A stretch of 64,000 nt of DNA from a virus: IMG/VR virus record IMGVR_UViG_3300021399_000006, positions 14,128-78,127 of that record; one strand, 5' to 3'. Shown here piece by piece: positions 2,101-23,690 of this stretch. The notes under the pieces are model-generated. The model was not told where the DNA came from. It ran no database searches and worked only from the letters and a program-made list of their open reading frames with translations. Within the stretch, counting starts at the first letter, position 1, and each line of letters begins with the position of its first letter. The position numbers were made by a program, and so were the translations under genes.

Positions 2101-2550
2101 TTACCATTGCCAATCTATTTGACCATAAGGGTAATATGGCATTCCTTCTTCTGTTCGCCATCGGCCTTTTCGTTTAATTTGCCGAAGATGAAGTTTTGTA
2201 TTATATCTTTGAGTTTTATGAGTCCCAGTGATATAAATATAACGAATTGAGCCATTTCTATGGCGAATGTCTAAATAGTGGCTATCCTTTCTTTGCATTT
2301 TACCGTTGTGTTTAAAATAATAGAATTTACCATTAATTACTTTAATACAGTCTTTTGCGAGTTCTCCACGTTTGTGAAGTGCGGATGTAGATTGATAGCG
2401 GTAATACCAGTCGCCTCCAGATTTAAAAAGACCATATTTATTTGATGCCTTTGCATTAACTTTTAAAGCAAAAATTATACATATAAAACCTATTATTAAT
2501 AGACTAATCAAGGTCATTAATATAAATTTAGTTTCTTTTGAATCTTTCAT
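2101..2550 (-). CDS. Membrane-anchored protein with putative cell-wall-binding repeats (GDWYY / NGKFYYFKHNGKM), lysis-associated. Standard code.
   Basis: Track ORF, 149 aa, N-terminal hydrophobic helix. Confidence 0.5.
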   Translation of the reverse strand: MKDSKETKFILMTLISLLIIGFICIIFALKVNAKASNKYGLFKSGGDWYYRYQSTSALHKRGELAKDCIKVINGKFYYFKHNGKMQRKDSHYLDIRHRNGSIRYIYITGTHKTQRYNTKLHLRQIKRKGRWRTEEGMPYYPYGQIDWQW

Positions 2551-2593
2551 TTTATATTCTCCTTTATGATATTATAAAAAAAGACATATCAAA

Positions 2594-2905
2594 TTAAGGA
2601 AAGATGTCCTTACTTTCTTTCCAAAATTTTTCATATTCTTTTCGTTCAATAGAGGCATTTTGTTTACGAATAAAATCTATCCGTCTAGAATGTATTTTTT
2701 CAATAGCGGGCATTAAATAATTTTCATCTATAATTTTGGGGTCAGAACGAGAGAAAATTTCTTTAGGAATAGACACTTCTTCTGTAATTCTGCCTTTTGA
2801 TATAGGTGAAAAATCTGTTAATTTAATGTGAATATTTCCGTCAGAGAATAAATTAAATTCCATACTAAGATTTTGGCTAAGATATTTAAATAAAATGGTA
2901 TTCAT
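2594..2905 (-). CDS. hypothetical protein
   Basis: Track ORF of 103 aa, co-directional with neighbours. Confidence 0.45.
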   Translation of the reverse strand: MNTILFKYLSQNLSMEFNLFSDGNIHIKLTDFSPISKGRITEEVSIPKEIFSRSDPKIIDENYLMPAIEKIHSRRIDFIRKQNASIERKEYEKFWKESKDIFP

Positions 2906-2920
2906 TTTAATCCTTTCTTT

Positions 2921-3415
2921 TTACCAGTTCTGAGTTACTGTAAGATGACCACCGCATTTACATCTATATCTGTTAGGATACTTTACAACATTACCTGCTC
3001 TATGATAACGACCAACAATTTCTCCGCAAGAGGAACAAGTAACAATGTATTTATATGTGTCAGGGGTATAAGCGGCAACCTTGGTCTGTGTTGTATCAAA
3101 TGTACAATCAATACGTTTGCACATTTCTTTAAAGACTTTATCGTGTCCATGATTTTCATGGGTTTCTACGATAACGAGATAGTGCGCGCATTCGTGTTTG
3201 ATTACATCATCTATTGTTGCGGGGTCTCCTACTTCGAGAAGTTTGTAGCTAAACTCCATACTTTCGGGGGTAGTGTATCCACTGCAAGAGAAGAAAAGGA
3301 CTCTACCAAGTGTTCTGGTAAGTCTTTTGTTAATTTTTACAGGGATTGTAAAATCATAACCTGCGGATTTACAAATTTCTGTACAACGAGCGGTAAGGTC
3401 CTTTTCTGTCATCAT
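2921..3415 (-). CDS. SprT-like zinc metalloprotease (HECAHY) with C-terminal Cys4 zinc ribbon
   Basis: Track ORF of 164 aa. HExxH motif plus CSSCG...CKCGG. Confidence 0.6.
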   Translation of the reverse strand: MMTEKDLTARCTEICKSAGYDFTIPVKINKRLTRTLGRVLFFSCSGYTTPESMEFSYKLLEVGDPATIDDVIKHECAHYLVIVETHENHGHDKVFKEMCKRIDCTFDTTQTKVAAYTPDTYKYIVTCSSCGEIVGRYHRAGNVVKYPNRYRCKCGGHLTVTQNW

Positions 3416-3521
3416 AATGATTTTTCCTTTCTTATTTTTTTCTTTTGATAATTATATTATATCAAAATTTTTTAATAAAATAAACAGGTTGCTCAATAAA
3501 GAACAGCCTGTTGAAAGGGAA

Positions 3522-4070
3522 TTATTCGTTAATAACTTCAATGCAACAAGATTTCATTACTTCAAGAGCAGCTTTATGATTTTCGGGGGTGGTTCCCGCA
3601 CAGCAAGATGCATCTACAATAATTTGAGTTTCAGGAAACAATGCTCTAAGAATAAGAACATTAGAAATAACGCAAATGTCTGTACATACTCCTGCTATTT
3701 CAATAGTAGTAGGTGGAAATCTTTTATAAGATATATCGGGGTCTATAAAAAATGTTTTCCAATTAAAATAACCAAAAGTTCCTTTTTCTATTGTTTTGCC
3801 AGCAAAAGGAAAGAGTTCATCAACAATGCACCATCCTGGAGTGCCTTTAATACAGTGGAGTGGAACTTTATTCATTTCAATTTTTTCTACTGGATTATCC
3901 CAATTCCATAAATAATGACTATCTTGCGTAAAAATAATTCTATCTGTCGATTGATTATATTCTTCTTTAATTTTAGCTTTTATTTTAGGTACAATTGCGC
4001 GGGCTTCAGGTGTTCCGAGAGGGCCAGTTACAAAATCATTCTGCATATCAATTACAATAAGTGCTTTCAT
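3522..4070 (-). CDS. Isochorismatase-family cysteine hydrolase (nicotinamidase-like)
   Basis: Track ORF of 182 aa. MKALIVIDMQNDF and GVCTDICV catalytic-Cys motif. Confidence 0.7.
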   Translation of the reverse strand: MKALIVIDMQNDFVTGPLGTPEARAIVPKIKAKIKEEYNQSTDRIIFTQDSHYLWNWDNPVEKIEMNKVPLHCIKGTPGWCIVDELFPFAGKTIEKGTFGYFNWKTFFIDPDISYKRFPPTTIEIAGVCTDICVISNVLILRALFPETQIIVDASCCAGTTPENHKAALEVMKSCCIEVINE

Positions 4071-4086
4071 TTAAATTCCTTTCTTA

Positions 4087-4977
4087 TTACATTATTTGAA
4101 CGATATTATCATATAGAAGATGGTGCTGTCCGCCAGGGAATACTTTATTGTTATGATAATGTCCAAAAAACCAATGTTTAAATGTTACTTTATCTTCTAT
4201 CTCTTGTAGAAATTTATTAATTGGAGCTTTATCATACCAATCATAACCCATAAAAGTCTGTATAGAAGAAGAGCAGTCGTGAGTAAAGATATAATCTACT
4301 TTATAATTGACTTTTTTAAGGTCATTCCAAACCTTTTCTTCTATTTCTTTTGTAGGTTCTTCTTGTTCCCACCATGAAACTCCTTTTACCCGAAACATTA
4401 GATGAGAAAAGCGTTTTTTATTATAGGCTTTTTTAAATTCATCATTGTTATTAAAATCTGCGGGATTAAGGATACCATCTGAAATATCGTGACTTGGTGC
4501 TCCATTATAAACAAGGATTTTTTTGTTATCAATAGTAAAGATACCAGATTCAAGAACTAAAACTGAAGGGCGGAGGACCCTTACGAAACCGCCATTCCAT
4601 TCTTTTTGAGGGTATCCTTTTTTAAACTTTTCTTTTTCTTCGGGGGGCATTTTTTCAAAAAGCCAACTATTTAGAAGTTTTTCGTCTTTAATACCCATTA
4701 TCCTGTCATAATTTTCATGATTACCAAGAACAACAAGAGTAGTAAAAGACTTGGATTCAAGCCAATCTAATGCCCATTTTTCCGCGGGCGACTCCTTAAA
4801 TGCGGAAAGGTCTGTATCCCAAATCCCGCCAAAATCTCCGCATATGATGACATAATCTTCTTTTGTTAATTCTTTTTGAATAGGAAAATTAGATGTATTG
4901 AACCGAGGAATAAAGCCATCTGTGGTTGAATGTCCAATCCGTGCGCCATGAGTGTCGCCTGTTACAAAAATTGACAT
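4087..4977 (-). CDS. Calcineurin-like metallophosphoesterase
   Basis: Track ORF of 296 aa. GDTHG, GDFGG and GNHE motifs. Confidence 0.7.
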   Translation of the reverse strand: MSIFVTGDTHGARIGHSTTDGFIPRFNTSNFPIQKELTKEDYVIICGDFGGIWDTDLSAFKESPAEKWALDWLESKSFTTLVVLGNHENYDRIMGIKDEKLLNSWLFEKMPPEEKEKFKKGYPQKEWNGGFVRVLRPSVLVLESGIFTIDNKKILVYNGAPSHDISDGILNPADFNNNDEFKKAYNKKRFSHLMFRVKGVSWWEQEEPTKEIEEKVWNDLKKVNYKVDYIFTHDCSSSIQTFMGYDWYDKAPINKFLQEIEDKVTFKHWFFGHYHNNKVFPGGQHHLLYDNIVQIM

Positions 4978-4993
4978 ATCTACTCCTTTCTTG

Positions 4994-5032
4994 CGGGGAT
5001 TAGGTTATGTTAGGACTGAAGGTGCTTCCCGC
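4994..5032 (-). ncRNA. Conserved intercistronic/5'-UTR stem-loop (copy 1) immediately upstream of the RBS of the 4087..4977 gene
   Basis: GCGGG..(28-nt loop CACCUUCAGUCCUAACAUAACCUA)..CCCCGC. Near-identical copy at 5504-5542. Confidence 0.4.
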
Positions 5033-5033
5033 A

Positions 5034-5486
5034 TTAATTATCAAACCAATAAAGAATATATACATCAGAAGGGTAATAATATTCATATCCAGCAAATTTA
5101 ATATAATATTCTATTTGTTCGATAAAAAATTTAATGGGGTTAGTTGTTTCAACTATTTCATCACCGCAGTTATCATAATCAGTAATAGTAGGATTACACA
5201 TTAAATAATTTTTTAAATCTGCAAAATTAACTTCTTTAAAATTGAAATACCCCATGGTATTTTGTATTTCTTGAATTTCTTTAGCAAAAGAAGGCTCAAG
5301 AAAAGTAGTGTGTAATTGATTCCAGGGAATATCATTTTCTAAAAGTTCAAATAATTCGTGATTACGTATATTATAAGGATTAATAGAAACGTATTTATCT
5401 TTTTTCTTGTTAAAAATTTCTATTTTATCGTAATATCCTGTTTCAGTATTTCTTATAGCAATAGCTGTGTGAATATCTTTTCCCAT
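5034..5486 (-). CDS. hypothetical protein
   Basis: Track ORF of 150 aa. Confidence 0.5.
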   Translation of the reverse strand: MGKDIHTAIAIRNTETGYYDKIEIFNKKKDKYVSINPYNIRNHELFELLENDIPWNQLHTTFLEPSFAKEIQEIQNTMGYFNFKEVNFADLKNYLMCNPTITDYDNCGDEIVETTNPIKFFIEQIEYYIKFAGYEYYYPSDVYILYWFDN

Positions 5487-5503
5487 TGTATTTCCTTTCT
5501 ATG

Positions 5504-5542
5504 CGGGGGGCTAGGTTATGTCAGGATTGAAGGTGCCGCCGC
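5504..5542 (-). ncRNA. Conserved intercistronic/5'-UTR stem-loop (copy 2) upstream of the RBS of the 5034..5486 gene
   Basis: Paralogous to 4994-5032, with stem-compensating changes. Confidence 0.4.
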
Positions 5543-5562
5543 AGTTTTATTAGTTTATAAAT

Positions 5563-5793
5563 TTAATGAGAGAAAATGCGCATACAAAATTCTCGAATAT
5601 CAGAATCCGAAATTGAGAAATATGCGATAGGATTTACAATAGTAAGAGAAGCTAATTCCATAGCAGAAATGCTTGGAAATTTGTTATCCCAATAGAGAAT
5701 TCGATTTTCAAGAGAAAAAGAATCCTGGGAAGCATTGCGGGCTTCCAAGTAATTTGATACTAAATTAAATGCGTAAGTCTGCTTAAAATCCAT
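5563..5793 (-). CDS. hypothetical protein
   Basis: Track ORF of 76 aa. Confidence 0.4.
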   Translation of the reverse strand: MDFKQTYAFNLVSNYLEARNASQDSFSLENRILYWDNKFPSISAMELASLTIVNPIAYFSISDSDIREFCMRIFSH

Positions 5794-5854
5794 ATTATTA
5801 CTTTCCTTTCTATTGTTTCATTTTCTAAATATATTATATAATAATTTTTTTAAA

Positions 5855-5890
5855 TTGGCAACTTGATTTTATAGAGATTTTTTGTTATAA
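5855..5890 (+). promoter_or_regulatory. sigma70-like promoter (TTGATT-16-tgTTATAAT) heading the plus-strand early block
   Basis: Hexamers read directly. Followed by RBS AAGGAG and the structured region. Confidence 0.45.
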
Positions 5891-5939
5891 TATAATAAGA
5901 AAATAAAAGGAGATAAGGTATGAATGTAGTATTATTTAT

Positions 5940-6045
5940 TATTTGTGTTATACTTGCGGGATCGGCAATGCTTCGCATTGCCGAGTTGAGCGATAATTCA
6001 GGCAAGTTTGCACTACGTGCAAACTTGCTAAATTCCGCTCAACCA
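5940..6045 (+). ncRNA. Structured RNA element: two perfect hairpins closed by UNCG tetraloops (UUCG, UACG) inside a long-range stem. It overlaps a doubtful 46-codon ORF (5921..6061).
   Basis: UCGGCAAUGC-UUCG-GCAUUGCCGA. GUUGAGCG ... [GCAAGUUUGCAC-UACG-GUGCAAACUUGC] ... CGCUCAAC. Confidence 0.4.
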
Positions 6046-6237
6046 ATTATTATATAGGATAAAAATAGGGGGTAGTAGTATGACAATAGTATGTGATTGT
6101 ACAGCTTGTCCTTATAACAGAAGCCGCTTTTGTAGAAATAGATTAGTTAAAATTACTAAATAGGGTTTTTGTAAAAGATTAAGTATGCGGAATTGGCGGG
6201 AGCCAGTTTAGGAAAAGTTTATGGAGGGTTATAGAAA

Positions 6238-6708
6238 GTGTTAGTAGGAATCACAGGACACAGACCAGAAAGATTAGGACCTAATTGGCCTGTAGTAGAA
6301 AGATGGATAGCAGGAAAGTTAGAAGAATATAAAGCAAGAGGAGAAAGAGTCAGTTTAATTACTGGAATGGCGCGAGGTGTTGACCAGATTGCGGCAACCA
6401 CTGCTATTGATGAAGGGGTAGGTGTAAGATGTTATTTCCCTTTCCCGCGCAAGTTTAGTAATTTAGAAGATTATGTTATATTAAATGCGGAAGTCACTAG
6501 ATTCGAGCAGAATTCATATACTCCCGATGTGTACTTAAGGAGGGACCGCCGCATTGTTGATGATTGTGATGTGTTGTTAGTTGTATGGGATGGTGTTAAA
6601 AGCGGGGGTACTTATTATACTTATAAGTATGCTCTTGCAAAGGGTAAGAAGGTTGAAGTTTTTAATATACCTGCGCAAGGTACGGATTTAAATAGGAGAC
6701 CTATATGA
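6238..6708 (+). CDS. SLOG-superfamily (DprA/LOG/YpsA-like) Rossmann-fold protein. GTG start.
   Basis: Track ORF of 156 aa. GITGHRP and GMARGVD motifs. Confidence 0.55.
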   Translation: MLVGITGHRPERLGPNWPVVERWIAGKLEEYKARGERVSLITGMARGVDQIAATTAIDEGVGVRCYFPFPRKFSNLEDYVILNAEVTRFEQNSYTPDVYLRRDRRIVDDCDVLLVVWDGVKSGGTYYTYKYALAKGKKVEVFNIPAQGTDLNRRPI

Positions 6709-6742
6709 TGTAGATTCAATCTGGAAAAGGAGGGGCTGCCGC

Positions 6743-6994
6743 ATGATTGTTGGAGTTTGGTTTAAAGATAGGGATTGGTGTGAAAAATGGTTTGCAGATT
6801 TTTTAAGTAAGATTAATTATGATGCAGTAGATAAGGTTATTAGGTCTAAGGTGTATCCGCCTGTAGTAGTAATGAAGAATCATAATTATATTAAAGGTAT
6901 TCCCGCAACAGATAATTCCCGGGGGCATAGGATGGATGTGGCTTATTTAGAACCAGGAATAAGAGATTCAGATATTTTTGATTATGTAATTTAG
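6743..6994 (+). CDS. hypothetical protein (may extend about 33 codons to TGA ~7094 if the terminal TAG is read through)
   Basis: Track ORF of 83 aa. Confidence 0.4.
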   Translation: MIVGVWFKDRDWCEKWFADFLSKINYDAVDKVIRSKVYPPVVVMKNHNYIKGIPATDNSRGHRMDVAYLEPGIRDSDIFDYVI

Positions 6995-7187
6995 CCTACT
7001 GTTGTTACTTTTGATTTTAGAGATAACAGATATAAAAAAGGGGAGATTTATGAAGGTCTTTATGGGGGGTAGGTTAAATTGGACTAGGTTCCTTGAAATT
7101 GGGGGTAGAGTAATGAGTGATTAAGGTGCGGATCCCGCACAGGGGAACCTTTTTGCATTTTTTGCTTATGAAATTTGTTTGATTGAT

Positions 7188-7255
7188 GTAAAAATGCTAT
7201 CCCAAAATTCACCTTCTATTATTATAATATGTGAATTTTCGGATAGCATTTTTAC
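7188..7255. promoter_or_regulatory. 25-bp inverted repeat (one mismatch) flanking an 18-bp spacer that contains TATAAT. Candidate operator/promoter upstream of the 7353 gene.
   Basis: gtaaaaatgctatcccaaaattcac / gtgaattttcggatagcatttttac. Confidence 0.5.
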
Positions 7256-7352
7256 TTAAAATATTATTTTTAAGGTCAAAAATAGAAAAGTGAAATGAAA
7301 TAAAAGTTATATAAATATGGAAGTATTAATTTTATATAAGGAGGAAAAAGAA

Positions 7353-8030
7353 ATGTTAGAATTAAATGTTCCATATACATCAAAAGATCTTGCTTAGCAA
7401 TTATTTAAAGTAAGTCCTAAGACTTTTACAAGTCAAAAGAAAAAGTATTTAGAGTATTTAAAATAGTTTTATGATTTTGATACTCAAGGAAGGAAAATTA
7501 TATTAAGAAGAGAATTAAAACCATTTGAGACAAGAATGGCAAATAGAAAACAAACAGTGGAGAGGAATACTTCTACTTATAGAGATATAACACATAAGAT
7601 TATAAGTTATAAGCCTTTAAATAGTGGTGCTAATATTGCAAGAGAGATATATGATAATCCATTAAAACCACCATTTAATCATGAAGAAAGTACTATTGCA
7701 AAATATGTTAGAGGAATTTTAAAGGAGGATTTTGAAATTATGGATAAACAATGGTGTAGAATTAATTATGATACAAATACTTATTAGCCTTTGAGTTTTG
7801 AAGAGAAGTGTTTTTTGATAGAGTTGTTTAAGGAAAGTGATTTAAGCAAGAAGATTATGGATATTACTGCTGATTTTAAGTGTGGAAATATTTCGAGAAA
7901 AGAGTTCCAAGAGCAGGTTGGTTTTGTTGCTTAGAGTAAGTATAATAGAGTGATGGATGCTTTTAAAGGAAAATTTGGTTTTAGACCTTATAAAGTTCCT
8001 AATTGGCGGGAGAAGCAAGGAGTAATGTGA
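7353..8030 (+). CDS. Hypothetical protein of 225 aa that requires TAG read-through (4 in-frame TAG) within the otherwise standard-code early region
   Basis: Strong RBS AAGGAGGA 8 nt before ATG 7353. 678-nt frame without TAA/TGA. Contains track ORF 7536..7787. Ends TGA overlapping the next ATG. Confidence 0.5.
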
Positions 8031-8374
8031 TGGAAGAAGAATTATTTTTAATGGAAAGAAATTATATTGATAAGAATTTTGTTTTGGTGAGAGATGGTGA
8101 GGACTTTTGTATACTTTTTGGAGATAAGGTGTATACAAAAATGGTGAATTGTAAAGATGTAAGTGAAGATTTTATAAAATATTATTATGAAAGTTTAAAA
8201 GAGATAGTGTTGGATGATGGTATCCAGATTTTTGATAGTGAGCCAGATGTGGAAGATATGAGAGAATTGGTTGATGAATGGGTGAGAGAAGAATTGTGGG
8301 ATTGGCGGAAGGAAGTTAAGGAATATAAAGGACATGATGATTTGCTTATGGCTTTAAGTGTGAAAGAAAGTTAA
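8030..8374 (+). CDS. hypothetical acidic protein
   Basis: Track ORF 8003..8374. ATG 8030 has RBS AAGGAG. Confidence 0.5.
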   Translation: MEEELFLMERNYIDKNFVLVRDGEDFCILFGDKVYTKMVNCKDVSEDFIKYYYESLKEIVLDDGIQIFDSEPDVEDMRELVDEWVREELWDWRKEVKEYKGHDDLLMALSVKES

Positions 8375-8581
8375 GTTAGTGTGATTATATAAATTATGTA
8401 AAATTAATGTAAATTGAAGTAAATTGTGGAGGTGTGGTGGCCGACCTACCTACCTCCTATATCACATCCAAAATACATTTACCGAATATTAACGTTCGGG
8501 AAAATTTTTTTTATAAAAAAAATTTTCCCCCATTATAATTATAATAAAAAATTTATAAGAAATCAAATCCATAAAACATTA

Positions 8582-8612
8582 AACGAGGCTCCCAACGGGA
8601 GCCTTTTTTTTA
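8582..8612 (+). terminator. Rho-independent terminator ending the plus-strand early block
   Basis: GAGGCUCCC-AAC-GGGAGCC followed by U8. Confidence 0.6.
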
Positions 8613-8930
8613 TATTATATCATAATATTTTAATAAAGTCAAGTGCGGTCTCGGCGGCAAGGCCATATGCCTCGGTCTGAACCTAAGGGCCCTATGATGC
8701 GAGAAGCAGGTGAGACTGCACATAGGTCCATCTCCGCCTGACGGATTCACATAGGTGAATTCAGTTATGTGGATAGGTTCACCTTTGTGGATTGTGCAAA
8801 ATGCACAAAAATTTCGGGAATTTTGGCGAAAAATTTGTGCAATTTTTTTTGAAAAAAATATTGACATTGAGAGAATTTTGTGGTATAATCGGCGCGAACC
8901 ATGGTTCGCGCCCCGATGGTTTTAGATATG

Positions 8931-8960
8931 GATATAAAAAAACAGGCGTTACCGCCTGTT
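8931..8960 (-). terminator. Rho-independent terminator (AACAGGCG-UUAC-CGCCUGUU + U6 on minus)
   Basis: Hairpin plus A6 on plus, which is U6 on minus. Confidence 0.5.
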
Positions 8961-9099
8961 TAAATCTATTAAAGAAAAATCAAAACCCATAATGAAAGCA
9001 AGAATTGCATCTGCTATAAGAATGAGAGGCCAAAGGGGTGTAGGTTCACGAAAGTAGAAGGTAGAGACCGCACATAAAACAAAGAACCATACAACGCAT

Positions 9100-9282
9100 T
9101 TAATCATAGAAAGAAACATCTTCAATTCTCCATGCAAAAGGTTGGCGATAATAATCAAGAGTAATTGCATCACAATAGCTCCCAAAAGGACACTCATCAC
9201 ATTTGTTTATATCTTTATAGGCTTTTTTACAACCTTTTTTAATGAGTTTCATTCCTTCAATAATTTCATTTTTCCAATTCAT
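9100..9282 (-). CDS. small Cys-rich protein (CDECPFGSYC)
   Basis: Track ORF of 60 aa. RBS AGGAGAAG. Confidence 0.5.
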   Translation of the reverse strand: MNWKNEIIEGMKLIKKGCKKAYKDINKCDECPFGSYCDAITLDYYRQPFAWRIEDVSFYD

Positions 9283-9283
9283 T

Positions 9284-9472
9284 TTATTCTTCTCCTATCT
9301 CAATACGATAACAAATATCACTAATAATATTATGAAGATTAAAATTAAAAGTATCTTCAATATCTTCTAAATCAAATTCATCTTTATAACAATGAATAAG
9401 ATTTTTAAAGGCTTCACCATATCTTTCCGCCAGTTCAGGAAAAAGAGTTTTTGAAATATCTGAATTAATCAT
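9284..9472 (-). CDS. hypothetical small acidic protein
   Basis: Track ORF of 62 aa. Confidence 0.45.
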   Translation of the reverse strand: MINSDISKTLFPELAERYGEAFKNLIHCYKDEFDLEDIEDTFNFNLHNIISDICYRIEIGEE

Positions 9473-9717
9473 CTGCTTTTCTCCCTTGCAATATCGCTAA
9501 ATTTGTACCACACGCCTTCATCATTTTCATCTCCCCAAGTATGAGTTCCTTCCCAATAGTCATAAAGTTCATCATAAGGAATAAACTTTTGTGCAAACAT
9601 GATAACACCAAAAGCCTGAGCACGACAATTCTTAACCATGTCAGCAGAAGAACATTCTTTTGCATCAGCAAGTCTTTTTTCAACAAATTCTTTAACATCA
9701 TCCATTGTGATAGTCAT
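9469..9717 (-). CDS. hypothetical protein
   Basis: Track ORF of 82 aa. RBS AAGGAAA. Confidence 0.55.
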   Translation of the reverse strand: MTITMDDVKEFVEKRLADAKECSSADMVKNCRAQAFGVIMFAQKFIPYDELYDYWEGTHTWGDENDEGVWYKFSDIAREKSR

Positions 9718-9897
9718 AGCTTATTTCCTTTCTGTTGCTTTCCTCTTGACAATTATTATTATATCAGATTATCGGGAAAATACAATATGTAATGTTGCAC
9801 AAAAATGTAGATGAAATTTTGGTAAGGTTGACTATTGACATATTTTGGGCGCTGTCTCAATGGACAGCGCCCCGGGCTTCCGCCTGGGACGACTGTT

Positions 9898-10116
9898 TTA
9901 ATATTCAAGAGCTGATAACCAATTATAGTTATTAATATAAATATCTTTCCAGAATACTCTTTTTACTTTATGTTCAGAACAATTTAACGTTTTAGCAACA
10001 TTCCAGAAAACAATGTCTCCATCTAACCACCAGTCAAAATATTCTTGTTTCATAATAAAAAGAAAAAGTAATGCTTTGATTTGTTTATCTCGTTCAATCT
10101 TTTTCTGTCGAGTCAT
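9898..10116 (-). CDS. hypothetical protein
   Basis: Track ORF of 72 aa. Confidence 0.45.
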   Translation of the reverse strand: MTRQKKIERDKQIKALLFLFIMKQEYFDWWLDGDIVFWNVAKTLNCSEHKVKRVFWKDIYINNYNWLSALEY

Positions 10117-10119
10117 AAG

Positions 10120-10380
10120 TTAATCCTCAAGCAATCTTTCTGCTACACGTCTCCTCACAAATTTTATTGTATTATCAATCTCTTTTTCATTATAATAAAA
10201 GAAATCGTCAGCCTCATCGAGTCCATCAAAACAATCGCAGATAGCACTGTTGCAATCTTCTGTAATAACTCCAAGAACTTCATCAACGATTTCATTAATG
10301 TCAATATTAACATTAATAGAACTAATTACAAATGCCATTTTATACCTCCTTAAAACTCCTTGAAAACTTCCTTCTGACAA
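10120..10380 (-). CDS. hypothetical acidic protein
   Basis: Track ORF of 86 aa. Confidence 0.5.
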   Translation of the reverse strand: MSEGSFQGVLRRYKMAFVISSINVNIDINEIVDEVLGVITEDCNSAICDCFDGLDEADDFFYYNEKEIDNTIKFVRRRVAERLLED

Positions 10381-10559
10381 TCAGGACACAGACCAGAGAT
10401 AAAACGCTCGCGGTCAGTAGGCGACATGTGTGGAAAAGCATCCTGCACAAGTTCGCCAGACAGATAATTAAGATACTGTTCTAACTCAACAGTAAGAGTA
10501 TGATAAGTATTGCACATAGGACAAACAAAACCCATAGTAATAGGAACGAAAAATTTCAT
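10350..10559 (-). CDS. small Cys4 zinc-binding protein (CPMC...CPDC)
   Basis: Track ORF 10350..10604. Internal ATG ~10559 has an RBS GGGGG. Confidence 0.45.
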   Translation of the reverse strand: MKFFVPITMGFVCPMCNTYHTLTVELEQYLNYLSGELVQDAFPHMSPTDRERFISGLCPDCQKEVFKEF

Positions 10560-10572
10560 ATTTACCCCCTTT

Positions 10573-10752
10573 TTAGAAAAACATAAAATAGCAGATACAA
10601 ACAATGCCTACTTTAATTGCAAGAGACTGAAAAATTTTAGCAAATGCTTCATACCAGTCAAAAGCAGAATCAAGAATAAAAAATGCTTTACTGATAAAAG
10701 ACACTCCCATAGCAACCGAAAAAATAATAAACATAACCATTCGCATATCCAT
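10573..10752 (-). CDS. small membrane protein (59 aa)
   Basis: Manual ORF, two hydrophobic helices. Confidence 0.35.
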   Translation of the reverse strand: MDMRMVMFIIFSVAMGVSFISKAFFILDSAFDWYEAFAKIFQSLAIKVGIVCICYFMFF

Positions 10753-11096
10753 TTTGTTTTCTCCTTTCTTGTTGATAATATAAGTATATCAGATTACAGG
10801 AAAAATACAATAGATAGATTGCACAAAAAATCAAATGAAAATTTGTTAATTATGTCTATTGACTTGAATTTTGGCGCGCGTGGTTTGTACGCGCGCCAGC
10901 CGTAGATTAAATCTGGTACAGGCTGACGCATTTTTTTACCTATTATTCCAAATCAAAGTACATGCTACGAAAACCATACAAAAAATTACAAGTGTTCCAA
11001 TATGAGGTTGTGAGCCAGGAAGAGTATAATACATTTTTTTATTTCCTTTCTTTTGATAATATCATTTTATCAAATTTTTTATTTTTTGTCAATACT

Positions 11097-11390
11097 TTAT
11101 TCTGAAGTATCGACTCCGCAAAGCCTCATAGTCATAGCGATACAAGTAAAAGCGAAAACTCCCATATCATCAGGAATAGCGTTATAAACATTAGGATAGA
11201 GTCTTTTAATACCAGTAAGAAACATTCCACCCCAATTTCCGCCACATGCAGAACAATGGTCAAGAAAAGCCTTTGTGTTTCCATTAAAAGGATTGACAGT
11301 GAAAGCGGCTTCAATAACTTTTTTGCCATCTTCTCCCCAATTTTCAACAAGATAGTTCTGTGCTTCAATAATCATATCGTATGTAATCAT
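11097..11390 (-). CDS. hypothetical protein
   Basis: Track ORF of 97 aa. Confidence 0.5.
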   Translation of the reverse strand: MITYDMIIEAQNYLVENWGEDGKKVIEAAFTVNPFNGNTKAFLDHCSACGGNWGGMFLTGIKRLYPNVYNAIPDDMGVFAFTCIAMTMRLCGVDTSE

Positions 11391-11737
11391 GCTTTATTCT
11401 CCTGTTCGTTAATAGCATCTGACAAATGATAACAAGATTCATAGGGATTAGTTTCAATAGCTTTTATCATAGAATCCATATCCCACTCAATTGAAATAAT
11501 ATTTTGAAGAGGATACATAATTCCTGCATCGTCTTTTATGTAACCATTCTTTTTAATAAAAAGCATAAGATATTCAGGAATAGAACAAGTAATACTATCG
11601 GGATTTATATGAGAAAAATAAGAATATTTATGCTTTTCATTATCAATAGTAGTAAAAGATACAGTATAATGAATAGCTGTTACAATATTTTTTTCTCCAT
11701 AAATCTTTTTGTATAACCATTTATTAATATTAAACAT
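11387..11737 (-). CDS. hypothetical protein
   Basis: Track ORF of 116 aa. Confidence 0.5.
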   Translation of the reverse strand: MFNINKWLYKKIYGEKNIVTAIHYTVSFTTIDNEKHKYSYFSHINPDSITCSIPEYLMLFIKKNGYIKDDAGIMYPLQNIISIEWDMDSMIKAIETNPYESCYHLSDAINEQENKA

Positions 11738-11919
11738 TTTTTATCTCCTTTCCTCTTGACAATTATTATTATATCAGATTATAGGAATAAAACAATAGGC
11801 AAAATATACAAAAAATGGATGAAAAATTTGTTAAAAGTGATGTATTGACAAAAAAATGGCGCGCGTGGGTTGTACGCGCGCCAAAAAGGCTACCACCTTT
11901 TACAGTGGTAGCCTGTGGG

Positions 11920-12321
11920 TTACTCTGCTTCACCGTCCGTAGGTTCAGCATCAGGGGCAACGAACTCGACCCCCTTGACAGCGTACAGAGTGCGCTTCTT
12001 ATAGACGTGTCTCTGTGCCTTGTCAGCCTTAATCAGCTGACCCAGGAGAGCACCCATCTTCTGCGGAGACAGGTCTGCCAGACGCTCATCTGCCATAATG
12101 TCAGCCATAGGGATGAACTCCTCTGCTTCCGTAAGAATCTCAAGGATGATACCCTTAAGGGTCTCATTCTGCTTCTGTGTCTTAGTCATACCGCTCTTAG
12201 AGCCACGCTTGTTCAGCTGTGCAATCAGAGCGTTCAGGCGTTCGATTGCTTCGGGATTAGTCTCGCCCAGAGCCTTGATACCATGGTTGATAGCTTCTAC
12301 GTAAGTCATAGTCTTAGTCAT
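11920..12321 (-). CDS. Family-A paralog 1 (133 aa, GC-rich), unknown function
   Basis: Track ORF. Paralogous to 15319..15723 and 17488..17853 (M..MTY.EAI.....A.G..N/H.EA.ERL.AL.AQL.KR...G.TKTQK). Confidence 0.6.
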   Translation of the reverse strand: MTKTMTYVEAINHGIKALGETNPEAIERLNALIAQLNKRGSKSGMTKTQKQNETLKGIILEILTEAEEFIPMADIMADERLADLSPQKMGALLGQLIKADKAQRHVYKKRTLYAVKGVEFVAPDAEPTDGEAE

Positions 12322-12878
12322 GTTTTTCTCCTTTACTGATGAATTGTTTTCTTTATCTTATGTATTTATTATATCAAAGTTTTTTTTGTTTGTCAATAGT
12401 TTTTTTTGTTTTTTTCGGGGAATAAGAAGCGGTGACGTCAATCCGCTTCCGTTTACCCCTGCCCATATTTATGTCATTGCGGATGGGCTTCCGCTTAGCT
12501 ACAAAATCGCATACACTTAATATCCTTTCCTGACCTGTTTCCTAAAGATATTGTAGCATAAATGTTGTTCCGTGTCAAGCCTTTTTTAGTAATTTTTTAA
12601 GGTTTCTCTTTGCGGTCGTTCCATGGCACTAACGGCAAAGGTACTTTTTGGGGCTGTGCTGACCGTCTTGACTGTCGGCCCTCTCCCTCTCTCATTTTGT
12701 AATTAAATTATATCAGAAATTTTTTAATTTTGCAAGTACGAATATCGGGAAATTTTTTATCGTAAATTTGTTTAAAAAAATGCTTGACAAAATGGCTCGG
12801 AGTATGGTATAATGGAATTTTGGCGCGCATCGATCGATGCGCGCCCGACCAGTTTTTTATACCAATCGGGCGTATTTT

Positions 12879-13067
12879 TTATCGTTTTATCATATTTAAA
12901 AGCTGATTAAATAAAGCGATATAGTCATCGTTATCTATAAATCTAATGGCTGTTTCTCCAAAAAATTTTTCAATAGTTTCGTCAATAGCGTCGGAAACAT
13001 CTTCCGCAAGAGTTTCCATATTAAAGTCAATTGAAAAAGTACATTTTTCTGCATCATAATTAAACAT
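12879..13067 (-). CDS. small acidic protein
   Basis: Track ORF of 62 aa. Three-gene acidic operon. Confidence 0.45.
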   Translation of the reverse strand: MFNYDAEKCTFSIDFNMETLAEDVSDAIDETIEKFFGETAIRFIDNDDYIALFNQLLNMIKR

Positions 13068-13070
13068 TTT

Positions 13071-13268
13071 TTATTCTCCTTTTTTAATTTTAGCTTCTTC
13101 AAGAACAGTATTAAGGAAAAAAGGGTAATCTTTATCAGAAATGCAGATTTCAGAATTTCCTATCCATCTATCAACAGCATCAATTACTTCATCTACAACC
13201 TGTTGAATATCAAAAACTTCAACAGTAGTAACTTTCATAAGACCATTATCTTTACAAAATTCAATCAT
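13071..13268 (-). CDS. small acidic protein
   Basis: Track ORF of 65 aa. Confidence 0.45.
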   Translation of the reverse strand: MIEFCKDNGLMKVTTVEVFDIQQVVDEVIDAVDRWIGNSEICISDKDYPFFLNTVLEEAKIKKGE

Positions 13269-13494
13269 TTTTTCTTTCTCCTTCTTCTGCTAAAGTTAAT
13301 ACATAATCGGCAACATCTATAATAAGATTATTATGATTTTCAATTATAGTAGAATGGTCTGCAATATCTAATTCATTAATACCCAATTCTTGATAAATCT
13401 CTTCTTCAATAAGATTAAGAATACGTTCTGCAATTACTTGAATGTCAATAGCAGATTTTTTAACAACAGTAACAGGAACAACTCTTGATTTCAT
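13261..13494 (-). CDS. small acidic protein
   Basis: Track ORF of 77 aa. Confidence 0.45.
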   Translation of the reverse strand: MKSRVVPVTVVKKSAIDIQVIAERILNLIEEEIYQELGINELDIADHSTIIENHNNLIIDVADYVLTLAEEGERKND

Positions 13495-13743
13495 TATCTA
13501 TCTCCTTTCTTTTGATAAGTCTATTATATCAGATTCCAAAAGAAAGTCAATACTTTTTAGGAAAAATATTTTTTATTTTTTCTTGCGGAAATTGCTTGAC
13601 AAAAAGCCTTACCTGTGATATACTTAAAAATTCGGCGCGCGCTGGAGTGGGACACGCAAGCGCGCGCCGTTCATAAATCTGAATTTCAAATTTATGTATA
13701 AAAAAATCCAGAAAGCTGAAATTCAGTTTTCTGGATAGTGGTT

Positions 13744-14133
13744 TTACTTTTTCGGGGGACGATGCTTGACAAGTTTCACAGTGTATGAATTACCGTTAAA
13801 AGTGAAACTAAATTCCGCTTCATTCTTTACACTGGACACGACACCGCCGAACACTTCAACCGCTGTTTTAATGGCAGTCAGCAGACCGCCTTTTTCAGCA
13901 TCGACCTTGCGTTCTCTTACGACCTTTTTGCGTTCCTTATCCGACTTTTCGTAGCGTCTACCGACCTCTTTAGCTTTTTTGGTCATGGCTTCCGCTTCCT
14001 CATTGTCTGTGTAATCATGGTCATCCAGCCAAACATCAATAGCTTCCTCTTTCGGAATGTCAAGGCTTGCCATAAGTTTTTTAATATCTCCATCGGGAAT
14101 ATTGATTTCTTTGCCATTGAAATTATATTTCAT
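13744..14133 (-). CDS. hypothetical Lys/Glu-rich protein
   Basis: Track ORF of 129 aa. Confidence 0.5.
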   Translation of the reverse strand: MKYNFNGKEINIPDGDIKKLMASLDIPKEEAIDVWLDDHDYTDNEEAEAMTKKAKEVGRRYEKSDKERKKVVRERKVDAEKGGLLTAIKTAVEVFGGVVSSVKNEAEFSFTFNGNSYTVKLVKHRPPKK

Positions 14134-14188
14134 AACGTACCCCTTTCTTTATTTTCTAAAAAAATTTTATCATAAAATTTTTTATTTG

Positions 14189-14884
14189 TCAAGTAGTAAA
14201 AAGCCGATATTCCATTTTTTTGTGCTGTCTAAAACAATGTGCCATGATTTTAGTCTCAATCAAAACATCCTCAAGCCCTGTGTGGGCTTCATCAAATGTG
14301 TTATTGCCTGAAATGTATCTGTAAAGAATTTCAGCAGTAAGACGAACACGAGGATTTTTGTGTTTTGTCATGTATTCATTTTTAATACACCATCTTTCAT
14401 AACTTTTCTGTTTTCCGATTGTCTGTCTTGCCATTTTCAAAGTATCCCAAATTTCCATTTTATAAGGGAAAAAGAAACGCTTTTTTGATTTATAGACCCA
14501 TCGGATAGTATTAGTCAGTGCTTTCCAATCAAAATGTGCGTTATGTGCGAAAATTGCCTTTACGCCAAATTCTTTTAAATCTTTCCAAAAGACATTATAC
14601 ATAGTCTGGAATCTAACAAGTTTCCGCTGTCCGCTTTTAACCTGTTCCCAATACATGGGAATTTTTTCAGCGTAATAGGCGGACGCCATAACGTCTTTCA
14701 TAGCTACAAAAACTTCATAAATCAGAAATGAACGAGTTTTATAAATCCGTCCCTGTTTGTCAGTGATAACCCAACCAATATCGTATACAAGAGACTGTGA
14801 TAAATCCAGTTTATCACCATCAAGCATAATGCCGTTACAAGTTTCAGTATCAAGCCCCATAAGGTATTTAATTCTTTTATCCAT
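14189..14884 (-). CDS. DEDDh 3'-5' exonuclease (DnaQ/RNase T-like)
   Basis: Track ORF 14189..14956. Start ATG 14884 (MDKRIKY) has RBS AAAGGAGA. Exo motifs GLDTETC, FAHNAHFDW, HTGLEDV. Confidence 0.7.
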   Translation of the reverse strand: MDKRIKYLMGLDTETCNGIMLDGDKLDLSQSLVYDIGWVITDKQGRIYKTRSFLIYEVFVAMKDVMASAYYAEKIPMYWEQVKSGQRKLVRFQTMYNVFWKDLKEFGVKAIFAHNAHFDWKALTNTIRWVYKSKKRFFFPYKMEIWDTLKMARQTIGKQKSYERWCIKNEYMTKHKNPRVRLTAEILYRYISGNNTFDEAHTGLEDVLIETKIMAHCFRQHKKMEYRLFTT

Positions 14885-15159
14885 TCTATCTCCTTTTGTG
14901 TGCTGTTCTTTGTTCCTTACAAGTATTATTATAAGGGATAGCAAGCGGAAAAGCAAGCAAAATTTTTAAAAAATTTGCACAAATTTCGGGATTTTATTTA
15001 ATTAAAATTTGTGCAGATTTTCACTTGACAAAAAGGTTGGCGGTATGGTATAATGGATTTTCCCCGCGGCCCGGAGGACCGCGGGGCGAGCAAAAAAAAT
15101 AGGGCCTGGAATATTCCAGGCCCACACACAGAAAGGAGGACAAATAAAAGTCAGTCAAG

Positions 15160-15232
15160 TGTGCCCGAAGGGACTTGAACCCTCGACCCTTTGATTAAAA
15201 GTCAAATGCTCTACCAACTGAGCTACGGGCAC
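15160..15232 (-). tRNA. tRNA-Lys (anticodon UUU), 73 nt, CCA not encoded
   Basis: Cloverleaf read by hand: acceptor GUGCCCG/CGGGCAC, D-arm GCUC-AGUUGGUA-GAGC, anticodon arm UUUGA-CUUUUAA-UCAAA, T-arm GAGGG-UUCAAGU-CCCUU. Confidence 0.75.
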
Positions 15233-15318
15233 ATAGACCCCACGTGGTACGCTATTAAGCGTGTGGGGTGCTGATATATGGCGGTTTTGATAAGGGAGAC
15301 CGCAAACTCCCCGATAGG

Positions 15319-15723
15319 TTAGGCGTCCTCGTCCTCTGCTACCTCGGCATCAGGAGCAACAAACTCCGTGCCTGCGATAGCGTACAGGGTGCGCTTTTTA
15401 TAGACCTTACGGACAACCTTTTCAGCCTTTACAAGCTGACCGAGCAGAGCACCCATTTTCTGGGTGGACATACCCTCGGGCAGGCGGTCATCTGCAAGCA
15501 GGTCTGCCATAGGGACGAAGTCCTCTACCTCTGCCAGAATATCAAGGATAACTGCCTTGATTTCCTCGTTGGCTTTCTGGGTCTTAGTCATACCACCCTT
15601 AGAGCTACGCTTTGCAAGCTGTGCAGTGAGAGCGTTCAGTCTCTCAACCGCTTCGGGATTGGTATCACCGAGAGCCTTGATTGCGAAATCGATTGCAGTT
15701 GCATAAGTCATAACGTTTGCCAT
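15319..15723 (-). CDS. Family-A paralog 2 (134 aa, GC-rich)
   Basis: Track ORF. Confidence 0.6.
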   Translation of the reverse strand: MANVMTYATAIDFAIKALGDTNPEAVERLNALTAQLAKRSSKGGMTKTQKANEEIKAVILDILAEVEDFVPMADLLADDRLPEGMSTQKMGALLGQLVKAEKVVRKVYKKRTLYAIAGTEFVAPDAEVAEDEDA

Positions 15724-16097
15724 AATGTTTTTCTCCTTTTTGATGAATGATTTTGTTTTCTTTATTTTATGTATTTATTATACTATAAGTTTTTTTATTT
15801 GTCAAGAACTTTTTTTATTTTTTATTTCTTGACTTTACAAGGAACACATGTTAGCAAGCCTTTGCATTTTTGCGTATTGGGATTGAGTCGGCTTTTGTTT
15901 TCCTCTTTCCCTTACCTTGTAAATATATTTTATCAAAAATTTTTAAAAAACGCAATATCGGAATATTGCACAAATTTCGGGATCTGTATTGATGTAAGTT
16001 TGTGCAGATTTTCACTTGACAAAATCTCAAGGATATGATATAATGGAATTTTCGCCGCGGCCCTGTGGACCGCGGCCCGCACAAAAAAAGGAGAGCC

Positions 16098-16277
16098 TTA
16101 CAGCTCTCCCCAGTTAGCGGAATTTTTAACAATACGTCTATCCTGTCTCCGTGCGGAGCGTTTAAACTGTTTACACAGTTTACGATATTCCGCACGAGTA
16201 TAAAGAAGTCCAACTTCTTTAACACCCAGCCCCCAGATAGACCAATTTTTAGCAGTACCCTTTTTAAAATAATCCAT
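16098..16277 (-). CDS. small basic protein (59 aa)
   Basis: Manual ORF with RBS GGAGAAAAAT. Confidence 0.4.
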   Translation of the reverse strand: MDYFKKGTAKNWSIWGLGVKEVGLLYTRAEYRKLCKQFKRSARRQDRRIVKNSANWGEL

Positions 16278-16288
16278 ATTTTTCTCCT

Positions 16289-16738
16289 TTAAGCAATCAG
16301 ACCAGACAGAAACGGGATAATATTCTGATTTGCGTCAATAGCGTCTCCGAGTGTCCAATCTTTTCTCACACGGTCATCATCATCAATCAAAATCTGAAAA
16401 CCACCGAGGTTTTTTGTACAGGTCTCTTTAACAGTTCCATATTCTACGATATGAAGTTCGTCATAAGGGAAATCATATTTCCGAAGCCAGTCAACTTTTG
16501 CCTGTTTGACTTTCGCATCATAGTTAGGAGTAGAATCTTTAGCAAGCCACGATGTAACGACAATTCGCCAACCGTCATTTTTAAGCACCCACAGGATAGC
16601 GGTCAGAAGCACCATATCATAAAGGGGTTTAGCTTTAATGTACGGTGTAGGGTCTTCCGCCCTAAGCATTTTCAGCCATCCTTTTACATTATAAGTATCA
16701 GCAAGAGTACCATCCATATCAAATACAAGAGTTTTCAT
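16289..16738 (-). CDS. HAD-superfamily hydrolase (5'(3')-deoxyribonucleotidase-like; FDMDGTL motif I)
   Basis: Track ORF of 149 aa. Confidence 0.6.
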   Translation of the reverse strand: MKTLVFDMDGTLADTYNVKGWLKMLRAEDPTPYIKAKPLYDMVLLTAILWVLKNDGWRIVVTSWLAKDSTPNYDAKVKQAKVDWLRKYDFPYDELHIVEYGTVKETCTKNLGGFQILIDDDDRVRKDWTLGDAIDANQNIIPFLSGLIA

Positions 16739-17060
16739 TTTTTGTTCTCCTTTCCTTTTGTTGATTATATATTATCATACATTGGAGAGATTGTCAAGGA
16801 TATTTTTTAAAGTAATCCACATAATTTTGCAATTATAGGGCTTATTACATAAAAAATTAAAAATAAGAAAAAAATCCAATTAAAATTAATTTCATCTTTT
16901 TTCGGTTTATGATAGACACTATAAACACCGATAATAAATATACTAATAAGATAAAATATAAAAATAATTTTTCCTGTCATTTTTTATTTTTCCTTTTCCT
17001 TTTGTTGATTATATATTATCACACATTGGAGAGATTGTCAATACTTTTTAAAAAATTTTT

Positions 17061-17243
17061 TTAAATTTCAAAAGTATCATTGCCGAACATTTCAACCATC
17101 TCATAAAATTCTTCTACAGAAGAACAATCAAAGGAAGCACCATTGATTTCTGCTACCTTTTCGCCGTAGGCTTCAAAGAAAATAGCGTTTTCAGTTTCAG
17201 CAAGAACAGTAAAAAATCTTTTAATATATTCTCTATGTGTCAT
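17061..17243 (-). CDS. small acidic protein
   Basis: Track ORF of 60 aa. Confidence 0.5.
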   Translation of the reverse strand: MTHREYIKRFFTVLAETENAIFFEAYGEKVAEINGASFDCSSVEEFYEMVEMFGNDTFEI

Positions 17244-17487
17244 GTTATTTCCTTTCTATTGCTTTCCTCTTGACAATTATTATTATAAGCGATAGCCTTA
17301 AAAAACACAATAGGTAAATTATACAAATTTCGGGATCAAATTTTGTTTATTTTTATTGTAGATTTCACTTGACAAAAAGCTGGCAGATGTGATATAATTG
17401 AATTTTGGCCCGCGCCGGAGCACTACGCGCAGGCGCGGGCCAAGCACAAAAAAGCGACTTTTAAGGGGAAGTCGCCACCCCATAAAA

Positions 17488-17853
17488 TTATTCCTCTGCT
17501 ACCAGAGAGTAGACAACGTGCTTGTCAGCCTTGCCCTTTTCAACGATGCCATCCTTGACCATCTGACCAAGGAGTGCGCCCATCTTCTGGACAGACAGAC
17601 CATCAGGCAGGCGAGGGTCAGCAATCAGCTTCACCATGCCGACAGGCTCTTCGGCTTCGCCGAGGATTTCAGCAATCATTTTCTTGATTGCTACGTTTGC
17701 TTTCTGAGTCTTAGTCAGACCCTTAGAGCCAGAGTTGCGCTTCGCAAGCTGTGCCTGGAGTGCCTTGAGGCGGTCAACGGCTTCGGTATGGTCTGCGCCC
17801 ATAGCCTCGATAGCGATATTGATAGCTTCTGCATAAGTCATAACATTTGCCAT
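17488..17853 (-). CDS. Family-A paralog 3 (121 aa, GC-rich)
   Basis: Track ORF. RBS AAAGGAG. Confidence 0.6.
   Translation of the reverse strand: MANVMTYAEAINIAIEAMGADHTEAVDRLKALQAQLAKRNSGSKGLTKTQKANVAIKKMIAEILGEAEEPVGMVKLIADPRLPDGLSVQKMGALLGQMVKDGIVEKGKADKHVVYSLVAEE

Positions 17854-23614: not shown

Positions 23615-23690
<76 letters not shown>

Follow-up and report, generated by a model that had tools for sequence, protein, structure and literature searches.

The window analysed here is a stretch of 64,000 nucleotides (nt) of viral DNA (positions 14,128–78,127 of the IMG/VR record IMGVR_UViG_3300021399_000006), and all coordinates given below refer to it. At 7353–8030 it contains a reading frame that includes four TAG codons, which raises the question of whether the whole frame encodes one protein, how its UAG codons are read, and whether they serve to time its expression. 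The explanation favored here, with a probability of about 0.6, is that 7353–8030 is a genuine gene of a Firmicutes phage in which UAG has been recoded to glutamate, and that its product appears after a switch of the code and is probably a DNA-binding regulator. It is likely that in this lineage UAG stands for glutamate, a code that has not been described for bacterial viruses and that arose independently of the glutamine reading of UAG in its relatives, and that the island to which 7353–8030 belongs is a regulatory module gated by the code switch.

The TAG-containing frame as a gene

The frame runs on the plus strand from the ATG at 7353 to the TGA at 8028–8030 and comprises 225 sense codons. 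As the first-pass annotation had described it, it holds four TAG codons (7395–7397, 7464–7466, 7785–7787 and 7932–7934, that is, codons 15, 38, 145 and 194) and neither TAA nor TGA. Such openness had been called unlikely to arise by chance, and the calculation agrees: 225 codons without TAA or TGA are expected with P = 6.7e-6 from the trinucleotide frequencies of the whole window, and mononucleotide shuffling of the region gave no sequence free of both triplets in 100,000 trials. The overlap of the TGA with the next ATG is also real, the A at 8030 being common to the stop codon and to the start of a downstream open reading frame (ORF), 8030–8374. A strong Shine–Dalgarno sequence does precede the ATG at 7353, although the site itself had to be corrected to the one listed in Table 1. 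Two other features around the start were discarded: the upstream in-frame ATG at 7317, used as the start for sequences P0002 and P0004, contains the Shine–Dalgarno sequence and is not conserved, and a possible hairpin around the Shine–Dalgarno and start region (7315–7334/7357–7376) corresponds to no conserved structure.

Among 5.8 billion proteins searched, 13 protein clusters match the 7353 product at 54–98% identity; 11 of them cover 98–100% of the query, and none of the 13 carries a Pfam domain. A profile search over 1.84 billion cluster representatives extends the family to 226 members, mostly of 220–260 amino acids (aa), and full-length members of about 225–260 aa share the motifs LNSG.NIAREI and KYGFRPYKVP, both of which are present here. 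DNA was retrieved for 14 loci, and in the 12 of them with homologous genes at 50–98% identity (L001–L012) every gene has 3–8 in-frame TAGs and no TAA or TGA. The distant homologues L014 (39% identical) and L013 (20%), found in other contexts, are without TAG. Nine of the 12 homologous genes keep the TAG at codon 15, and nine keep that at codon 38; the other TAG positions drift between relatives, exchanging freely with GAA and GAG.

The ratio of nonsynonymous to synonymous substitution rates (dN/dS), computed with TAG as a sense codon, is 0.10–0.29 in codons 1–61, 0.11–0.40 in the internal standard ORF 7536–7787 (0.9 in one distant pair) and 0.05–0.34 in codons 145–225. The N- and C-terminal extensions are both conserved in relatives and, judged by these ratios, are under purifying selection. 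It could be argued that only the internal ORF of 84 aa is real, or that the locus is a decaying pseudogene with the TAGs as true stops, since the ATG at 7536 opens a TAG-free stretch that reaches the TAG at 7785. However, the flanks are constrained as much as the internal ORF or more (dN/dS 0.05–0.3), so that conservation is not confined to 7536–7787; none of the 12 relatives has a TAA or TGA over the 225 codons; no Shine–Dalgarno sequence precedes 7536, while 7353 has AAGGAGGA; and the AlphaFold2 model described below is one folding unit, whose C-terminal strand (residues 213–220) is conserved. That alternative is hardly credible at all. The full-length homologues and the selection on the extensions bear out the proposal that the whole 225-codon frame, and not just its middle, is the gene. 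The four in-frame UAGs are thereby shown to be sense codons, and because the entire TAG-containing frame is real, conserved and under selection, the full-length product requires UAG decoding, as had been claimed.

In a 133-kilobase (kb) IMG/VR contig (L044) the neighboring genes are 75–89% identical in DNA to those of the window, and in place of the 7353 gene there is a family member that is very divergent (255 aa, 7 TAGs; E = 1e-23 with the family profile). When the reverse complement of 12585–13834 of this contig is set against 7085–8385 of the window, the same upstream palindrome is found, the gene is swapped and ORF 6743–7096 is missing. This shows that the gene turns over between close relatives in the manner of a cassette. 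This locus was reached through a neighboring gene, and searches of IMG/VR with the 7353 protein or its alignment gave no match. No match was obtained either by tblastn against annotated phages and plasmids, and no homologue was found among the phages of the collection or within the initial 50 kb of the related phage Phass-1. Standard gene calling splits or mistranslates this whole, sizeable protein family, with its 226 representatives.

The amino acid assigned to UAG

The window is that of a stop-codon-recoded phage. When TAG is taken as sense, its longest ORF grows from 372 to 2,981 codons, and the plus-strand block 28972–61546 yields a sigma factor, terminase, portal, virion and tail-fiber proteins. 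Terminase, portal and sigma factor are recovered only in this way, with 21, 11 and 10 in-frame TAGs, respectively, and a protein of 2,980 aa has 71, all without TAA or TGA. The terminase is of the SPbeta YonF type, with relatives in phages of Bacillus, Lactococcus, Enterococcus and Clostridium; these relatives, together with strong AGGAGG sites and a CW_7 lysin domain, point to a Gram-positive (Firmicutes) host. The Phass-1 group (OQ749652; PMC10607447) resembles the window in its TAG-recoded late genes, in a related structural module, with 52% identity in the major capsid protein and 42% in the terminase, in its gut origin and in its predicted Clostridia host. In Phass-1, TAG is read as glutamine and three tRNA-Sup(CTA) are found among 36 transfer RNAs (tRNAs) (Babkin et al. 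2023, PMC10607447).

Genes of this clade have been translated in the public databases with glutamine at TAG, and the first-pass annotation made the same assumption, which is not borne out by the comparison with relatives. Nineteen late genes were aligned at the codon level with those of 29 IMG/VR relatives, and the TAGs of the window face GAA 678 times, TAG 495, GAT 140, GAG 121, CAA 47 and CAG 19. This amounts to 799 GAR against 66 CAR codons, about 12 to 1, a profile such as a glutamate codon has, and the log-likelihood of glutamate minus that of glutamine is +200, +1385 and +1026 in three identity bins. If each site is given one vote, glutamate comes first among the partners at 78 of the 115 TAG sites and glutamine at 5, and the TAG sites match benchmark GAA/GAG sites (glutamate at 288 of 386) rather than CAA/CAG sites (glutamine at 150 of 243). 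Against a standard-code relative with essentially no in-frame TAG (L039), the TAGs of the window face glutamate 55 times, aspartate 10, lysine 8 and glutamine 5. Opposite the 21 TAGs of the terminase, five standard-code YonF-type terminases have glutamate 24 times, aspartate 16 and glutamine 8, with two columns that are glutamate in all five. In the 7353 family itself the TAG columns hold mostly GAA or GAG.

Phass-1 provides the control. Its TAGs face glutamine 16 times in the window, lysine 11, alanine 9 and glutamate 6, whereas the TAGs of the window face glutamate 33 times in Phass-1, aspartate 23 and glutamine 7; the in-frame stops of two further relatives, L040 and L041, also face glutamine in the window. 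Comparative evidence of this kind indicates that UAG is most likely read in this lineage as glutamate, not glutamine. A glutamine reading (the standard "code 15") would follow the published rule for recoded phages, Phass-1 included, and some TAG columns of the 7353 family do hold CAA as well. It is nevertheless very improbable, because glutamate prevails by codons, by sites (78 to 5) and against the standard-code relative (55 to 5), because TAG falls on columns that are glutamate in every terminase compared, and because the same method recovers glutamine where glutamine is expected, in Phass-1 and in L040/L041.

Only 2 of 101 Phass-1 TAG sites coincide with TAG sites of the window, so that the two recodings look independent. 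The clade defined by the structural module comprises members with the standard code (L038, L039), with TAG as glutamine (Phass-1, L040/L041) and with TAG as glutamate (the window and 25 relatives), and the glutamine and glutamate lineages have almost no TAG sites in common. No report of UAG as glutamate in a phage was found in the literature, the coverage of which is incomplete, so that this is absence of evidence only. If the assignment is true, code 15 is wrongly applied to this clade and every TAG has been written as Q in databases; phage recoding would also be more plastic, related lineages having given the same codon different amino acids.

How UAG is decoded was approached through tRNA searches with ARAGORN and Rfam (at gathering and E-value thresholds) in the window and more than 60 loci. 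For this lineage, the window and about 26 kb of flanks (from the near-identical or related contigs L001, L044, L052 and L138) cover about 90 kb of a genome of 100–133 kb. The only tRNA found there is a tRNA-Lys(UUU) at 15159–15232 on the minus strand, of ordinary sequence and conserved in relatives, and no release factor or aminoacyl-tRNA synthetase was seen in the ~90 kb. Beyond the window, a further 20 kb carries genes for DNA polymerase III alpha, helicases, ThyX and primase, with at most one TAG in any of them, as well as for RecJ-like and GIY-YIG proteins with 10 TAGs each; inspection by eye revealed neither a release factor nor a synthetase in these 20 kb. In the distant-homologue contig L014, a tRNA with anticodon TCA at 14692–14763, called tRNA-SeC by ARAGORN, could be a TGA suppressor, although no in-frame TGA was seen in the genes called on that contig. 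Firmicutes are not known to have a glutaminyl-tRNA synthetase (GlnRS). They load tRNA-Gln with glutamate, which is then amidated by GatCAB, and a candidate route to the assignment is that a CUA suppressor escaping amidation would insert glutamate. With no recognizable suppressor tRNA at hand, the decoding mechanism becomes a testable question.

Proposed expression class and role of the product

The share of TAG among TAG, GAA and GAG codons divides the window into clearly separated classes. It is 0.236 in the late genes (28972–61546, plus strand), taken as the reference rate, 0.205 in the island genes 6193–8030 (plus strand), 4/21 or 0.19 in 7353–8030 and 0.26 in the minus-strand genes of DNA metabolism at 61590–63546 (RuvC-like, dUTPase), and it reaches its highest value of all, 16/38 or 0.42, in the minus-strand lysis genes 2–2161. 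These lysis genes, Glyco_hydro_114 and Lactamase_B + CW_7, lie downstream of a TAG-free block on the same strand. By contrast, the minus-strand blocks 2101–5486 (0/73, P = 3e-9) and 8949–28819 (0/220, P = 2e-26) avoid TAG both as sense and as stop. DNA polymerase III alpha, helicase and primase, encoded beyond the window, likewise belong with the genes compatible with the standard code, which are presumed to be early. Among the listed genes that lie completely within the window, all stop with TAA or TGA and none with TAG. Most genes of this phage use TAG as a matter of course, and it is the genes without it that form the special class. The 7353 gene had been described as a TAG-dependent gene embedded in a standard-code region. 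It does lie between two TAG-free blocks, but it is not alone there: it is one of at least three TAG-containing genes, 6080–6358 (9 TAGs), 6743–7096 (3) and 7353–8030 (4), in a plus-strand island of about 5.9–8.4 kb. The same layout, with strictly TAG-free minus-strand genes on both sides of a plus-strand island that uses TAG, is seen in L001, L004 and L012.

Two genes of the TAG-rich late operon, 37556–38659 (putative major capsid protein) and 42839–43906 (structural), have no TAG despite 25 and 15 glutamate codons. Both encode abundant virion proteins, which suggests that the recoded codon is avoided in genes with high expression.

The proposed model is that the TAG-free blocks would be translated first, by the unmodified host machinery, and that the island, sigma factor, structural, lysis and some DNA-metabolism genes would give full-length protein only once UAG is decoded. 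Since the island genes would need this decoding, the 7353 protein would be a post-switch product. The gene would be transcribed from a promoter embedded in the conserved palindrome upstream of it, and translation would be passed on to the overlapping ORF 8030–8374, which is probably coupled to it because its ATG shares one base with the preceding stop. The clean separation of TAG-free and TAG-using genes would thus offer a sequence-only readout of expression before and after UAG decoding.

It had been suggested that the gene is a developmental timer, its TAGs, especially those at codons 15 and 38, having been selected to hold back an early-transcribed regulator, so that the code switch itself would trigger the next stage, such as early shut-off or late activation. 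The island could be transcribed early because it has its own sigma-70-type promoter (5863–5891); the TAGs at the two codons named are kept in 9 of the 12 homologous genes each; the island uses TAG in every recoded relative, even where a divergent 7-TAG family member replaces the gene; and such logic has been proposed for lysis genes (Borges et al., bioRxiv 10.1101/2021.08.26.457843). The proposal is not supported, however, since the TAG share of the gene is no higher than the late average, the remaining TAG positions drift, the distant homologues L013 and L014 lack TAG, and no regulatory target was found, the half-site of the palindrome being confined to the 7353 gene. Moreover, no special explanation is needed when most genes of the phage use TAG. 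A dedicated timer is therefore unlikely, and the TAG codons of the gene look like a passive signature of the post-switch class, not a purpose-built device. In the region 28900–30084, the first gene of the late block, a phage sigma factor (phrog_5767) with 10 TAGs directly behind a near-consensus host-type promoter (TTGACT-17-TATACT), is a stronger candidate for a code-gated developmental switch.

The structure of the protein was modeled with AlphaFold2 from an alignment of 13 sequences (A2), the first of which (P0001) is 98% identical to the window protein, and the mean predicted local distance difference test score (pLDDT) is 87. The N-terminus (residues 7–54) is composed of a strand (7–8), three helices (10–18, 22–27 and 29–36) and two strands (40–45 and 48–54), which form a helix-turn-helix with a beta-hairpin wing, and it is followed by a long helix, a second helix–helix–hairpin unit, a helical C-terminal part and the terminal strand mentioned above. 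Because of this predicted N-terminal unit, the protein probably binds DNA. Searches of Pfam, PHROGs and NCBIfam with the 7353 protein and 103 family members gave nothing usable and left the family unnamed; weak Pfam helix-turn-helix matches occur in 1–3 of the 103 members (E = 7e-4 to 7e-3). A profile search of the PDB gave only E > 0.09, with a match to 2d1h at E = 0.42. Foldseek returned ScpB, BlaI and MecI at a probability of at most 0.28, which is non-significant, and a fold search of BFVD matched only uncharacterized gut-virome proteins. The idea of a late-acting regulator thus gains from the fold, which suits a regulator, but not from any library or fold search, none of which assigned a function. 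By its sequence relationships the product is a member of an uncharacterized, fast-evolving phage protein family. Winged-helix regulators of the BlaI/MecI and MarR type and the tandem winged-helix protein ScpB likewise have an N-terminal helix-turn-helix and hairpin, and the layout of the regulators is similar, with a palindrome that overlaps a –10-like box ahead of the gene. They offer no counterpart to the central and C-terminal parts of the 7353 protein, and the fold matches are weak.

That palindrome had been recorded as a 25-base-pair (bp) inverted repeat flanking a TATAAT. The repeat and the TATAAT are real, but the core arms are 21 nt long, not 25, and can be extended to arms of 37 nt with 84% complementarity (7183–7219/7224–7260). 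It is the longest local inverted repeat of the window, and the TATAAT (7223–7228) is found within its AT-rich center. A palindrome of the same design lies upstream of the family gene in 13 of 14 distinct loci, L044 counted, and L007, truncated upstream, has the right arm only. The palindrome ends 90–119 nt 5' of the start codon in the 9 loci delimited by automatic search and 39 nt in L013. With the invariant AAAAT/ATTTT core as anchor, the 21 positions of the arms form Watson–Crick pairs in 88% of cases over 12 loci, against 29–46% when one arm is slid, and at many positions two or three kinds of pair occur; the –10-like TATAAT always sits in the AT-rich center. The conserved box AAGGTCAAA is not enriched elsewhere in the window. 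These features suggest a DNA-level element, a candidate promoter with operator or a cruciform-prone site. An RNA hairpin was rejected as the main reading, because C.A and G.T mismatches both occur, so that neither RNA strand is favored, and because the –10-like box is central, so that a transcript starting from it would lack the left arm.

The combination of protein and palindrome could also be explained if the 7353 product were a Rep-like replication initiator with two winged helices, and the palindrome part of the origin or the operator of the initiator gene. This would fit a protein of 225 aa with an N-terminal winged helix-turn-helix and a second helix–helix–hairpin unit, a long palindrome with an AT-rich center that always adjoins the gene, the weak Foldseek matches to tandem winged-helix proteins such as ScpB, and the cassette-like replacement between close relatives, which is typical of specificity modules. 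However, the fold searches gave no RepA/RepE-type protein, the surroundings of the gene show neither iterons nor tandem direct repeats (in 5400–9000 only scattered two- or three-copy matches occur), DNA polymerase III alpha, helicase and primase are encoded by the phage itself at other places, and GC skew follows gene orientation and marks no origin here. An initiator is quite unlikely, and a probable DNA-binding regulator made after the switch is still the favored reading.

Several points weigh against this reading. The timing of expression is deduced from codon usage, and the glutamate assignment comes from comparative statistics in which the pairs are not independent. The ~90 kb of the lineage yielded neither a suppressor tRNA nor another decoding factor, and if the host itself read UAG, no switch would exist; according to the literature, suppressor tRNAs are detected in only about 40% of recoded phage genomes. 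Furthermore, the arms of the palindrome do not co-vary with the protein, in which the locus differs from the winged-helix regulators: the protein of L001 is 80% identical and its arms are different, and the arms of L044 are nearly the same with a very divergent protein. This independence makes autoregulation through the palindrome doubtful, and the reading of the palindrome as an autoregulatory operator is weakened.

Comparable systems and neighboring genes

Recoded gut phages of the kind described by Borges et al. (crAss-like, Lak, Garnet, Jade and Agate, among others) share several traits with this phage: TAG occurs in frame in genes for structure, lysis and other functions, some genes stay compatible with the standard code, and the recoded ones are spread over several modules. 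Their lysis genes are especially rich in the recoded codon, to be compared with 0.42 against 0.236 for lysis and late genes here. A suppressor tRNA was detectable in a minority of the recoded genomes (bioRxiv 10.1101/2021.08.26.457843). The present lineage differs from them in that its TAG aligns with glutamate, not glutamine, in that it is an SPbeta/YonF-type phage of ~100–133 kb from a clade not named in that paper, and in the lack of any suppressor tRNA, release factor or synthetase seen in the ~90 kb. It differs from Phass-1 likewise in the glutamate reading and in that no suppressor tRNA was found in the same ~90 kb. The general idea that recoding gates gene modules is already published, and what would be new here is the glutamate assignment.

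A further parallel is provided by the UAR = Glu codes of some ciliates and of Blastocrithidia (PMC11687900, PMC12153298), in which UAG is given to glutamate as it appears to be here. The reassignment there is genome-wide and concerns the nuclear genomes of eukaryotes, whereas the present case is that of a bacterial virus, with the codon used in some genes and not in others, and with relatives that have glutamine or the standard code.

The features of the locus are collected in Table 1. The promoter at the head of the island is faced by a divergent minus-strand promoter (5861–5833), and a bidirectional terminator-like hairpin closes the island. The hairpin that follows ORF 6743–7096 is a possible weak terminator that would part the upstream genes from the 7353 gene. 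ORF 8030–8374 has no TAG against 17 glutamate codons, for which P = 0.01 at the late-gene rate.

Table 1. Features in and around the TAG-using island (window coordinates).
Feature	Position	Strand	Remarks
Sigma-70-type promoter TTGATT-17-TATAAT with TG extension, island head	5863..5891	+	Consensus match only
TAG-rich gene, 92 codons, 9 TAG, Cys-rich N-terminus (CDCTACPYN...FC)	6080..6358	+	Kept in L001, L004, L044
SLOG/DprA-like (YpsA-type) gene	6193..6708	+	PF02481, PF12694, phrog_289
Island gene, 117 codons, 3 TAG	6743..7096	+	Absent from L044
Conserved GC hairpin TGCGGATCCCGCA, then T-rich stretch	7127..7170	+	3' of the stop of ORF 6743–7096; kept in L001, L005, L010
Conserved DNA palindrome with CCNAAAAT/ATTTTNGG core, candidate promoter/operator	7188..7255	.	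21-bp arms 7188–7208, 7235–7255
Shine–Dalgarno sequence AAGGAGGA	7338..7345	+	7 nt 5' of ATG 7353; AGGAGG-type sites at the same place in relatives
Coding sequence, 225 aa, uncharacterized phage family	7353..8030	+	Four TAGs as sense, most likely Glu; stop TGA 8028–8030
Downstream ORF, 114 aa, acidic, 0/17 TAG	8030..8374	+	Weak match to PHROG 20403 (function unknown)
Bidirectional terminator-like hairpin closing the island	8585..8605	.	Sequence

The gene at 6080–6358 overlaps the SLOG-like gene in another frame, and its tail is strongly acidic when TAG is read as glutamate. The true start of the SLOG-like gene is probably a GTG near 6238, which would leave it with 0–1 TAG; its homologue in L044 starts with MLVGITGH. 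Farther downstream, the early region at 9700–22600 has a raised GC content (0.37–0.41), paralogous small genes (11920–12321, 15319–15723 and 17488–17853) and a promoter unit on the minus strand (TTGACA-17-TATAAT with a ribosome-binding site) that recurs about 10 times. The same region contains 5 plus-strand consensus promoters, each followed directly by a GC-rich hairpin (12767, 15008, 17352, 18984 and 20042), and these promoter–hairpin units face the minus-strand genes.

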